Shown here: positions 57,001 to 60,000 of the stretch, in pieces
Layout: the number at the start of each line of letters is the position of its first letter
Position numbering within the stretch: the first letter of the stretch is position 1
Assembly: GCF_000027125.1 (NCBI RefSeq)
Contig: NC_017626.1
DNA length: 64,000 nt
Origin: Escherichia coli 042
Lineage (GTDB): Bacteria; Pseudomonadota; Gammaproteobacteria; Enterobacterales; Enterobacteriaceae
Strand: one strand, 5' to 3'
Position numbers: made by a program

Positions 57001-60000
57001 TTTTCTTTGTATGTGATGGACTTGTGACAGAGTGGTTATTGTTAATCTGGCAAAGAGGGAAAAACATATTATTTAAACCATTGTAGCACATAAAATATCC
57101 TTATAATTAACAAGAAAGAAAAGGCATATTCTCTGCATTATCATTTTCTACGACTGTCAAAAATCGCTCATTTTTTAATGCGTTTATTTGTTTAATATTA
57201 TGGGAAAAGGTGATGCATTTTGCAGAGGAAGAGTATTCCCCGGTCAGGCGACCGGGGAAGGGGAGAGATTAATGCGCGCGGCCTTGCTCAACGCCAAAGC
57301 CGGTCTGGGAGCGGATAAACTGCGCACGGAACAGTTCACGCTCACGCGCGCCTTCCGCTGAGTTATCGGTTGCCGAGAAGAACCAGATGCCGAGGAATGC
57401 CACGCTGATAGAGAACAGCGCCGGGTATTCATACGGGAAGATGGCTTTTTCGTGACCGAGGATCTGTACCCAAATCGTCGGGCCGAGGATCATCAGCACT
57501 ACAGCGGTAATCAGCCCCAGCCAGCCGCCCATCATTGCGCCACGCGTGGTCAGTTTTGACCAGTACATGGAAAGCAGAATGATTGGGAAGTTACAGCTCG
57601 CCGCGATGGCAAACGCCAGGCCTACCATGAAGGCGATGTTCTGATTCTCAAACAGCACGCCGAGGATTATTGCAATCACGCCCAAAATCAGGACGGTGAT
57701 TTTCGATACCCGCAGCTCTTCACGTTCGGTCGCCCCTTTTTTGAAGACGTTAGCGTACAGGTCGTGAGACACCGCCGATGCGCCCGCCAGCGTCAGACCC
57801 GCAACCACCGCAAGAATGGTGGCGAAAGCAACCGCTGAAATAAAGCCGAGGAACAGGTTGCCACCCACTGCATTCGCCAGGTGAACTGCCGCCATGTTGT
57901 TACCACCAATCAGATGGCCCGCCGCGTCTTTATATTCCGGATTCGCACCAACCAGCATGATCGCGCCGAAGCCGATAATAAAGGTCAGAATATAGAAGTA
58001 GCCCATAAATCCGGTAGCGTAGAACACGCTCTTACGCGCTTCGCGGGCATCGCTGACCGTAAAGAAGCGCATCAGAATGTGCGGCAAGCCAGCCGTACCA
58101 AACATCAGCCCTAGCCCCAGAGAGAGCGCGGAGATGGGATCTTTCACCAGCCCGCCCGGCTTCATGATGTCGACACCTTTCGGGTGTACCGCCATCGCTT
58201 CGCTGAACAGATTGTTGAAGCTAAAGCCGACGTGTTTCATCACCATAAAGGCCATAAAGCTGGCACCGAACAGCAACAGCACGGCTTTGATAATCTGTAC
58301 CCAGGTGGTCGCCAGCATGCCGCCGAACAGGACGTACATCATCATCAGCACGCCGACCAGTACCACCGCAATATGATAGTTAAGGCCAAACAGCAGCTCG
58401 ATCAGTTTACCTGCGCCTACCATCTGAGCGATAAGGTAAAGCGCCACCACCACCAGAGAACCACAGGCCGAAAGAATACGAATCGGCCCTTGTTTCAGGC
58501 GGTAAGAGGCTACATCGGCAAAGGTGTAGCGTCCCAGGTTACGCAGACGTTCGGCAATCAGGAACAGAATGATTGGCCAGCCCACCAGGAAGCCCAACGA
58601 GTAGATCAGCCCGTCATAGCCGGAGGTAAACACCAGCGCGGAGATCCCCAAGAATGAGGCGGCGGACATATAGTCCCCGGCAATCGCCAGCCCGTTCTGA
58701 AAACCGGTGATATTGCCGCCTGCCGTGTAGTAGTCATTACGCGAACGTACGCGTTTTGACGCCCAGTAGGTAATGCCGAGCGTAAACACGACGAAAATCA
58801 GGAACATAATAATCGCCTGCCAGTTTGTTGGCTGGCGCTCTACGGCCCCGCTAATAGCATCCGCGGCGTTAGCTGCGAAAGGGAGTGTGGCGGCAAGCGC
58901 CGTCAGAACTCTTTTCATGATGCTTGTACCTCATGCAGGACTTCATTATTAAGACGGTCGAATTCGCCGTTCGCCCGCCAGATGTAGATACCAGTGAGAA
59001 CAAAGGAGATCACAATTACCCCAACACCAATCGGAATACCGCGTGTGACGCTGGTGTTCGGATTCAGCGGAGTGCCCAGCCAGCCGGGCGCGAAGGCGAT
59101 CAGTAAAATAAAGCCGATATAAACTGCCAGCATAATAATCGACAGGATGGTGGCAAACCGTTGCCGTTTTTCGACTAACTCCCTGAAATGCGCATTGTCT
59201 TCTATCCGCTGATAAATCGTACCATTCATCACAGATTCTCCAGAGGTAATGTAGGGATTGTTTTAATTCCCGCTCCCTTATGGGAGAAGGTTAACGCTCG
59301 GGTAACCCTTGCCGAATGTAGGCCGGATAAGGCGTTTACGCCGCATCCGGCAATCAACGCCTGATGCGTCGCTGTCGCGTCTTATCAGGCCTACAGCCGT
59401 TGCCGAATGTAGGCCGGGTAAGGCGTTATACGCCGCATCCGGCAATCAACGCCTGATGCGTCGCTGTCGCGTCTTATCAGGCCTACAGCCGTTGCCGAAT
59501 GTAGGCCGGATAAGGCGTTTACGCCGCATCCGGCAATCAATGCCTGATGCGTCGCTGTCGCGTCTATCAGGCCTACAGCCGTTGCCGAATGTAGGCCGGA
59601 TAAGGCGTTTACGCCGCATCCGGCAATTAATGCCTGATGCGACGCTGTCGCGTCTTATCAGGCCTACAAACCGTTACCGACTCGCATCCGGCAATTGTGG
59701 GTTACGATGGCATCGCGATAGCCTGCTTCTCTTCAAGCAGCTTCTCGACTACGCCAGGATCGGCAAGCGTCGAGGTATCGCCCAGGTTGCTGGTATCGCC
59801 CGCCGCAATTTTGCGCAGAATACGGCGCATAATTTTGCCGGAGCGGGTTTTAGGCAGGGAGTCGGTCCAGTGCAGCACGTCTGGCGTCGCCAGCGGGCCA
59901 ATCTCTTTACGCACCCAGTTGCGGACTTCTGCGTACAGTTCTGGTGACGGTTCCTCCCCATGATTAAGCGTGACGTAGGCGTAGATCGCCTGACCTTTAA

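Follow-up and report, generated by a model that had tools for sequence, protein, structure and literature searches.

A four-unit BIME-2 array between acs and yjcH in Escherichia coli 042 and its possible influence on the acetate-uptake operon

In the window analysed, a stretch of 64,000 nucleotides from Escherichia coli 042, the acetate-uptake operon is situated on the minus strand. Its upstream gene acs (59702–61660) encodes acetyl-CoA synthetase (652 aa; Pfam AMP-binding, AMP-binding_C and ACAS_N) and is followed by yjcH (58915–59229), encoding a DUF485 inner-membrane protein of 104 aa (Pfam DUF485, 2.8e-31), and by the last gene of the operon, actP (57269–58918), encoding the acetate/cation symporter of 549 aa (Pfam SSF, 3e-144). 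All three genes are also called by RefSeq, and the two sets of gene calls place the repeat array studied here where the preliminary description had put it, between acs and yjcH within the acs-yjcH-actP operon. Co-transcription of acs, yjcH and actP has been reported (PMC6036698) and is also stated in PMC6498577, with reference to Gimenez 2003, and since the operon is co-transcribed the array should be transcribed with it. Sequence comparison and folding set apart a 79 nt yjcH leader (59230–59308, minus strand) outside the repeat, which contains a small hairpin conserved across Enterobacterales (59269–59290, CCUUCUCCC-AUAA-GGGAGCGGG) together with the ribosome-binding site of yjcH and a tract rich in A. 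A scan of both strands of the spacer (59230–59701) revealed neither promoter-like sites nor any candidate intrinsic terminator, i.e. a GC-rich hairpin followed by a U tract. In the RefSeq feature table of K-12 no REP feature is listed for the acs-yjcH spacer.

Tandem Repeats Finder identified a single array at 59309–59680 with a period of 92 and 4.1 copies (matches 95%, indels 1%, score 670), and a repeat search found four in-register copies with spacings of 92, 91 and 90 nt. Each repeat unit is 90–92 nt long and consists of one Y REP and one inverted Z2 REP. Unit 1 (59309–59399, 91 nt) has its Y hairpin at 59322–59351 and its Z2 hairpin at 59359–59390, while unit 2 (59400–59491, 92 nt; Y 59413–59443, Z2 59451–59482) carries the variant gggtaa and one additional A in the Y loop. 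Unit 3 (59492–59581, 90 nt; Y 59505–59534, Z2 59542–59572) is one T short in the Z2 stem, and unit 4 (59582–59673, 92 nt; Y 59595–59624, Z2 59632–59663) is the closest match to the single unit of K-12. The anatomy thus agrees with the earlier claim of REP pairs arranged as about four BIME units in tandem, and the single-base variants quoted for them (ggataa versus gggtaa, cttatcagg versus ctatcagg, caatcaa versus caattaa) were all found.

The head motifs (GCCGGATG for Y and GCCTGATG for Z2) alternate eightfold, in the order Y- Z+ Y- Z+ Y- Z+ Y- Z+, and every palindrome is bordered by GTAGGCC and GGCCTAC. The head-to-head linkers are 7 nt (AATCAAC, AATCAAT or AATTAAT) and the tail-to-tail linkers 14 nt. 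Between unit 4 and acs, abutting the acs stop codon, lies a remnant of 28 nt (59674–59701, minus strand) in which a Y REP is represented by its 5' arm alone (GCCGGATGCGAG). Comparison with the single-REP alleles L011 and L014 and with K-12 identifies this remnant as the trace of an original single REP that received the BIME unit or units.

The array is, with hardly any room for doubt, a BIME-2, a class defined by z2 and y REPs with a short linker, arranged in tandem and present at a given locus in numbers that differ from strain to strain (PMC3333891, Ton-Hoang et al. 2012). The Y and Z2 composition is given by the head motifs and by the alignment of the units to the Y-linker-Z2 model RF02564, the orientation alternates, the head-to-head linker of 7 nt is of the short (S) type, unlike the long, IHF-site-containing L linker that defines BIME-1, and the 4.1 tandem copies found here compare with one, two, three or four units in other E. 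coli. The label BIME given in the preliminary description can therefore be narrowed to BIME-2. An assembly artefact is ruled out since three complete genomes obtained independently (H1, H2 and H37) carry the same sequence with 100% identity and a diverged four-unit allele occurs in USMARC-49610, and four 91 nt copies at 95% identity exclude a random origin. A CRISPR-like array was also considered and rejected, as the entire 92 nt unit repeats and unique spacers are absent.

A comparison of copy number across strains, which had been suggested earlier, showed that the site is polymorphic and that the allele in the window is expanded from the one-unit state of K-12. The E. coli alleles comprise one REP only and one, two, three or four units, with acs-yjcH intergenic lengths of 132, 199, 291, 393 and 472 nt in the allelic series. 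One unit is found in K-12 and the large majority of E. coli, three in Nissle 1917 and ATCC 25922, and four in 118UI-type genomes. Among 60 genomes surveyed by their flanks only, one unit was counted in ~40, two units in 3, three in 2 and four in 2. A perfect Z2-linker-Y junction is present in 647 of the 5,426 complete genomes, i.e. ~12% have at least two units, where only the perfect-match class and flank-span samples were used, since a near-identical junction in the nrdD-nrdG BIME-2 confounds exact counts of copies per genome by this query. Four units are carried by about 3–5% of complete E. coli genomes. No array of more than four units was seen among ~100 sampled genomes, and the maximum of four junction places per genome is compatible with five units. 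Variants of the spacer also carry ERIC elements, and insertions of IS1397 occur within the array; in one strain an IS-associated deletion has removed the region from acs through phnE.

Outside E. coli the synteny is kept across 80 species with spacer lengths from 73 to 314 nt. Escherichia, Salmonella and Citrobacter have a REP directly after the acs stop, and in several Enterobacterales the site is free of REPs (spacers of 73–83 nt). With a single unit in the majority of E. coli and none in those Enterobacterales, a large array at this site is clearly not required. These sequences show that the site began with a single Y REP after the acs stop, which persists in some Escherichia, then acquired one Z2-Y unit as in K-12 and went on to two, three or four copies in minority lineages. 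The most plausible routes of amplification are slippage or unequal recombination among the units and the activity of the REP-associated transposase TnpA-REP. The array is a target of IS1397, and such arrays are hot-spots where IS1397 inserts and where IS-associated deletions arise.

RNA folding, another of the checks proposed in the preliminary description, gave a stable structure for the transcribed array, with a minimum free energy of -231 kcal/mol for the spacer RNA (z = -11); local folding resolved eight REP hairpins, each between -14.2 and -20.5 kcal/mol. Two features of a stabiliser/attenuator of the REP325 or malE-malF type are thereby present, namely stable hairpins and a position between tandem co-transcribed genes, the co-transcription being taken from the literature. 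The operon mRNA would carry the array as Z2(inverted)-Y(direct) repeats forming eight stable hairpins which, by analogy with REP325 and the classical REP stabilisers, could block 3'-to-5' exonucleases and stabilise the acs segment. The same hairpins may attenuate transcription or read-through into yjcH-actP, partly via Rho, and the outcome would be a raised acs:actP ratio, with an effect that becomes larger as units are added. As DNA, the Y REPs probably serve as sites for gyrase. Taken together, a BIME-2 array tuning relative expression within the acetate-uptake operon is probably the best explanation of the locus. The more specific proposal, that the array may measurably change the expression of acs versus yjcH-actP, is drawn from the analogy with REP325 and is evenly poised.

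A combined protecting and attenuating action of this kind was recently shown for REP325 in yjdM-yjdN. Deletion of REP325 lowered the yjdM/yjdN ratio from 35 to 1, a partial Rho dependence was seen for the long array only, and REP-separated tandem gene pairs show a genome-wide bias towards the upstream gene (bioRxiv 10.64898/2026.03.23.713779). On the other hand, according to the same preprint, two to four hairpins gave no Rho-dependent termination, and the effects of REPs depend on context, with no global lengthening of half-lives. For the operon itself, a decrease of ~2-fold for acs and ~4-fold for yjcH and actP has been reported in E. coli W (PMC6036698). In APEC strains the induction was 84-fold for acs, 81-fold for yjcH and 78-fold for actP, given as fold values only and not as absolute ratios, and from these near-equal values it follows that the spacer does not uncouple the regulation of the three genes. 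No published data specific to the acs-yjcH array were found, yjcH being absent from the supplements of the REP325 preprint and of the gyrase Topo-seq paper.

The strongest alternative is a neutral or selfish amplification: the array would simply be tolerated in a permissive intergenic hot-spot, without any meaningful effect on expression, and its copy number would drift through recombination or TnpA-REP. This is quite possible, though short of probable. The spacer collects small repeats of several kinds (REP variants, ERIC elements, IS1397), most genomes have few copies, the length of the spacer varies widely over the 80 syntenic species and the reported effects of REPs are context-dependent and at times absent, all as a neutral history would have it. 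Against it speak the genome-wide upstream-biased expression at REP-separated tandem genes and the strong effect of REP325, as well as the REP just past the acs stop common to Escherichia, Salmonella and Citrobacter; moreover, exonucleases and RNA polymerase are unlikely to pass unaffected through an mRNA with eight hairpins of -14 to -20 kcal/mol.

Tuning of expression by the array could also be taken one step further, so that the allelic series (single REP, one to four units and the ERIC/IS1397 variants) would act as a graded heritable dial on Acs:ActP, the expanded alleles being kept by selection on acetate scavenging and not by drift, but this extension we consider rather unlikely. Were it true, the locus would be a ready natural test of a length-dependent terminator/stabiliser function of REPs. 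The natural copy-number series in the acetate switch, an operon that has been studied in depth and matters physiologically, could in any case be used for testing the recently proposed dual terminator/stabiliser role of REP arrays and its dependence on length.

The array might instead act mainly as DNA, either as a strong gyrase site or by buffering topology between acs, which is highly inducible, and the downstream genes; such an action would be compatible with a role in the RNA. BIME-2 elements are enriched for gyrase cleavage in vivo, mostly in the Y REPs and independently of transcription (PMC6379681), and there are four Y REPs in the array; however, just a subset of BIME-2 elements is cleaved and the acs-yjcH site is absent from the text and supplements examined of that study, making such a main function improbable.

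Searches with the Rfam covariance model RF02564 (naRNA4, gathering score 59.5 bits) matched all four units on the plus strand over the full model (positions 1–77 of 77), with 77.4 bits for unit 1 (59321–59391), 67.5 bits for unit 2 (59412–59483), 71.4 bits for unit 3 (59504–59573) and 84.6 bits for unit 4 (59594–59664). Scores of 67.5–84.6 bits could be read as the array encoding naRNA4-like nucleoid-associated RNAs that bind HU and condense or organise the chromosome. The Rfam matches are real, yet the strand concerned is antisense to the operon and has no promoter-like site, while the transcribed minus strand scores 42.7–51.8 bits and thus stays below the threshold. In addition, the head-to-head linker is 7 nt here versus 13 nt in naRNA4, and REP325/naRNA4 itself showed no measurable nucleoid compaction (bioRxiv 10.64898/2026.03.23.713779), so a function of this kind is very unlikely.

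The 212 aa ORF with a TTG start on the plus strand (59309–59947) can be dismissed almost outright as a gene for a repeat protein, since its open frame of 212 codons has successive units read in different phases (the unit lengths being 91, 92, 90 and 92 nt), is shut 99 nt upstream of acs in the other four-unit allele and is reduced to 121 aa in K-12, runs 246 nt antisense into acs after crossing the array, has no Pfam match above the curated cut-off (one lies below it) and receives no CDS call by PGAP in an identical RefSeq genome. With neither a conserved frame, nor homologues or domains, nor an annotation, the ORF is spurious, as had been proposed from the outset, and strain-specific indels alone keep its frame open. 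Where IS1397 has inserted into the array of one strain, PGAP called another spurious ORF, on the minus strand. The practical value of the finding lies mainly in annotation, as such arrays give rise to long spurious ORFs.

Among known systems, REP325/naRNA4 is a BIME-2 of six units between yjdM and yjdN, ~40 kb away in K-12, and like the acs-yjcH array it is a tandem Y/Z2 array between co-transcribed genes with units above the Rfam threshold; by analogy, the acs-yjcH array would be expected to share its dual role, as a stabiliser of the upstream gene and an attenuator of the downstream gene. The two differ in period (100 nt versus 92 here), number of units (six versus four), head-to-head linker (13 nt versus 7) and tail-to-tail linker (~23 nt versus 14). 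They also have opposite orientation to the mRNA: the high-scoring strand of REP325 is the mRNA strand, whereas the transcript of the acs operon carries the sequence complementary to the naRNA4 sense strand, and because of this orientation the analogy is inexact.

REPs acting as translational down-regulators, for which the distance between hairpin and stop codon must not exceed 15 nt (Liang, Rudd & Deutscher 2015, cited in PMC12306157), share with the present case a REP in the 3' region of a translated gene. In the four-unit allele, however, the distance from the acs stop to the first complete hairpin is 38 nt (hairpin at mRNA positions 42–73, numbered from the U of UAA) with the half-REP remnant at +10, and such translation-coupled regulation was rejected for this allele, while the single-REP alleles L011 and L014 do fall within the 15 nt.

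Another known system is the intergenic BIME-2 of nrdD-nrdG, a separate locus with the same orientation to its operon, where the junction of Z2 tail, 14 nt linker and Y tail is identical in 56 of 57 nt. With the BIME-2 family as a whole (Gilson/Bachellier classification, according to PMC3333891) the array shares the alternating Y and Z2 REPs, the short head-to-head linker, the GTAG/CTAC feet, the extragenic position, the tandem amplification and the strain-dependent copy number at one locus, and it differs in nothing essential, being an expanded four-unit allele of a site with one unit in K-12. The array is a known kind of element, and no new type of element or mechanism is implied.

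The acs-yjcH spacer lies between acs (59702-61660, - strand; Pfam AMP-binding, AMP-binding_C and ACAS_N) and yjcH (58915-59229, - strand; DUF485), which is followed by actP (57269-58918, - strand; SSF). RefSeq annotation of matching genomes agrees with Pfam for all three genes, confirming the earlier placement of the repeat between two operon genes. PMC6036698 and PMC6498577 (the latter citing Gimenez et al. 2003) describe the genes as co-transcribed, and predictions for both strands of the spacer gave neither a sigma-70-like promoter nor an intrinsic-terminator-like site. The segment is 100% identical in E. 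coli 118UI and several other complete genomes, which rules out an assembly artefact confined to one genome as the source of the array.

Tandem Repeats Finder reported a sole array, at 59309-59680 (period 92, 4.1 copies, 95% matches, 1% indels, score 670), and a repeat search gave four in-register copies with spacings of 92, 91 and 90 nt. The preliminary description of four tandem units at 59301-59690 thus matches the sequence, and every single-base variant quoted in it was found. When cut at the recurring TTGCCGAATG motif, the spacer consists of a non-repeated yjcH leader (59230-59308, 79 nt), unit 1 (59309-59399, 91 nt), unit 2 (59400-59491, 92 nt), unit 3 (59492-59581, 90 nt), unit 4 (59582-59673, 92 nt) and a remnant adjoining the acs stop codon (59674-59701, 28 nt). 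Read on the + strand, a 7-nt head-to-head linker in each unit joins an inverted Y REP (GTAGGCCGGATAAGGCGTTTACGCCGCATCCGGC) to a direct Z2 REP (GCCTGATGCGTCGCTGTCGCGTCTTATCAGGCCTAC), and a 14-nt tail-to-tail linker (AGCCGTTGCCGAAT) completes the unit; a head-motif scan found the Y- Z+ alternation eight times in the array. This fits the published definition of a BIME-2, i.e. z2 and y REPs with a short S linker in tandem copies whose number at each locus varies between strains (Ton-Hoang et al. 2012, PMC3333891). The array is a real feature, a known BIME-2 site with an expanded allele in this strain; both the element class and its strain-variable copy number are already in the literature.

According to the head-motif scan it is also the largest of six REP sites within the 64-kb window. 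The others, at 19175-19297, 27920-28018, 248, 23434 and 40884, carry no multi-unit array; one of them scores above the Rfam naRNA4 threshold (19175-19245, + strand, 67.4 bits). Further Rfam matches at gathering threshold were sraL (51943-52083, - strand, 153 bits), a lysine riboswitch (9402-9598, - strand, 99.5 bits) and STnc430 (11493-11641, - strand, 88 bits), all expected in that region of the E. coli chromosome.

The array was earlier said to mimic an ORF, and the mechanical ORF list does contain one of 212 aa with a TTG start at 59309..59947 (+ strand), overlapping acs antisense by 246 nt. It was rejected as a gene. Its phase shifts from 0 in unit 1 to 2 in unit 2 and 1 in units 3-4, because the unit lengths are not multiples of three, and it is kept open only by strain-specific indels; the K-12 counterpart is 121 aa and in another four-unit allele the frame is shut 99 nt upstream of acs. 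The sole Pfam match scored 17 bits against a cut-off of 25, and in an identical genome PGAP annotates just yjcH, acs and actP, with no CDS for the ORF, so that the claim of a spurious ORF is borne out. The array is accordingly an annotation trap.

Comparison between strains showed one to four units at the site. In K-12 MG1655 the spacer is 199 nt (leader, one unit and remnant) versus 472 nt in the window, and the 273-nt difference equals three units. Spacer length was read from a query of the two flanks alone for 60 of the 5,417 matching records, sampled at even spacing. About 40 of the 60 had the one-unit length (span 593/594), nine had one-unit variants 10-13 nt longer and three a 226-nt variant, while two units were found in three, three units in two (Nissle 1917 among them) and four units in two; in the remaining record only the yjcH flank matched. 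The full query, on a separate and independent set of 40 spread records, gave similar proportions. A 57-nt query spanning the Z2-linker-Y junction, whose target requires at least two units, had a perfect match in 647 of 5,426 genomes (about 12%); matches with one mismatch belong to the nrdD-nrdG BIME-2, and junction places per genome are therefore not convertible to unit counts.

Among individual alleles, two units occur in MS15052, three in Nissle 1917 and ATCC 25922 and four in USMARC-49610. The last has the diagnostic unit-2 variant GGGTAAGGCGTTATACGCC in common with the window and differs from it by several single bases, so the four-unit state is inherited and diverging and did not arise afresh in a single strain. 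Copy number may change through homologous recombination or slippage between units, perhaps also through TnpA-REP, a transposase with in vitro cleavage and recombination activity on BIMEs (PMC3333891). Z0117EC0055 (locus L007), of one-unit length, carries a second palindrome of a different REP type, GTCGGATGCGATGCTGGCGCATCTTATCCGACCTAC, a REP replacement and not an amplification.

Insertions of IS1397 (IS3 family) were also seen at the site. JNE25-005 (locus L003, NZ_AP045057.1, 4380-6230) carries this four-unit array too, but interrupted by IS1397 within the unit-4 Z2 REP loop (~59649 in the window), flanked by a 4-bp tgtc duplication; here PGAP calls a spurious 94-aa 'hypothetical protein' through the array on the - strand. 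In SK0189 (locus L010, NZ_AP046539.1, 3170-4800) the order is yjcH, half of the acs-yjcH Y REP, IS1397, half of a different REP and phnD. About 38 kb is gone (acs through phnE in K-12 coordinates), leaving the strain without acs, apparently through an IS1397-associated deletion from one REP site to another.

A one-genome-per-species scan with YjcH gave 80 loci in species ranging from Escherichia to Pectobacterium and Pantoea, all with acs directly upstream of yjcH and with spacers of 73-314 nt (median 167). Besides an A-rich tract and the ribosome-binding site, the shortest (73-83 nt; Buttiauxella, Trabulsiella, Leclercia, Kosakonia and Cedecea) contain only a small conserved hairpin (CCCTCTCCC-loop-GGGAGAGGG), and the longer ones have lineage-specific insertions. 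These include a single REP just past the acs stop in E. coli SCPM-O-B-8794, E. whittamii, Salmonella and Citrobacter, and ERIC/IRU-like elements that separate the conserved hairpin from the yjcH ribosome-binding site in Salmonella, Citrobacter, Klebsiella, Kosakonia, Buttiauxella and one E. coli lineage. The ERIC/IRU-like insertions were seen at comparison loci L017, L025, L026, L039, L057, L058 and L009; the last, from MLI114, has the ERIC-like element in the leader and one Y REP only. Small repeats of several kinds have thus landed in this spacer repeatedly. In the window the small hairpin lies at 59269-59290 (- strand) and, with the A-rich tract that follows it, upstream of the yjcH ribosome-binding site. 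The hairpin is kept across many genera of Enterobacterales (loci L011-L090) with few compensatory changes, and was rejected as a terminator.

In the single-REP alleles of Escherichia the Y REP begins 9-10 nt past the stop codon, the position at which K-12 and the window have the half-REP remnant, with the BIME unit(s) between it and an intact Y REP. This arrangement suggests that recombination in the original Y REP, within its 5' arm, added the units.

When folded in operon sense, the 475-nt spacer RNA has an MFE of -231.2 kcal/mol versus -164 ± 6 for shuffled sequences (z = -11.1), and the opposite strand folds equally well because the elements are palindromes. Local folding, with base-pair span limited to 45 nt, predicted eight REP hairpins in the mRNA (four Z2, -14.2 to -20.5 kcal/mol; four Y, -16.6 to -20.5 kcal/mol) separated by weak linker hairpins, versus two in the K-12 allele. 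The first complete hairpin starts 38 nt past the acs stop codon, beyond the 15 nt within which, according to PMC12306157, the ribosome-stalling mechanism of Liang et al. 2015 needs a REP.

Earlier studies, as cited in 10.64898/2026.03.23.713779 and PMC6061677, established REPs as 3' exonuclease barriers (Newbury 1987; Khemici and Carpousis 2004) and BIMEs as attenuators (Espeli 2001), and DNA gyrase acts preferentially at BIME-2 elements, mainly at their Y REPs (PMC6379681). The best functional analogue is REP325, between yjdM and yjdN in K-12, studied by Harris et al. (2026 preprint, 10.64898/2026.03.23.713779). In that study, deleting it brings the yjdM/yjdN mRNA ratio down from about 35 to about 1, with yjdM down about 3-fold and yjdN up about 10-fold. 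REP325 gives a ladder of hairpin-terminated RNAs and is partially Rho dependent as the full 12-hairpin array only, not with 2-4 hairpins; REP325 and naRNA4 give no measurable nucleoid compaction, and genome-wide, tandem gene pairs split by a REP show a bias to the upstream gene (same preprint). By analogy, the eight-hairpin array would stabilise the acs segment and cut read-through into yjcH-actP, both more than the K-12 allele with its two hairpins. Where acs is down about 2-fold in E. coli W, yjcH and actP are down about 4-fold (PMC6036698), which weakly favours such uncoupling; in APEC strains the three genes are induced about equally, which is neutral or mildly against it. With its natural series of copy numbers, the site lends itself to tests of REP-array function.

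Each unit matches Rfam RF02564 (naRNA4), a model built from the Y-linker-Z2 units of REP325, end to end with 84.6, 77.4, 71.4 and 67.5 bits (gathering score 59.5), and the single K-12 unit with 84.1 bits. In the array these matches are on the + strand, antisense to the operon, while the transcribed strand reaches only 42.7-51.8 bits. REP325 (K-12 yjdM-yjdN spacer, locus L002) has 5.8 copies of a 100-nt unit and six naRNA4 matches of 95-111 bits on the - strand, that of the yjdMN mRNA. The two arrays are thus of the same element class but opposite in orientation to transcription, and their head-to-head linkers differ (7 nt in acs-yjcH, 13 nt in REP325). The nrdD-nrdG BIME-2 (locus L091, O157:H7 ECP19-2498, 1139-1327), whose junction was found in about 1,280 genomes, has the same Z2-tail/14-nt linker/Y-tail junction as the acs-yjcH array (56 of 57 nt identical) and also the same orientation to its own operon.
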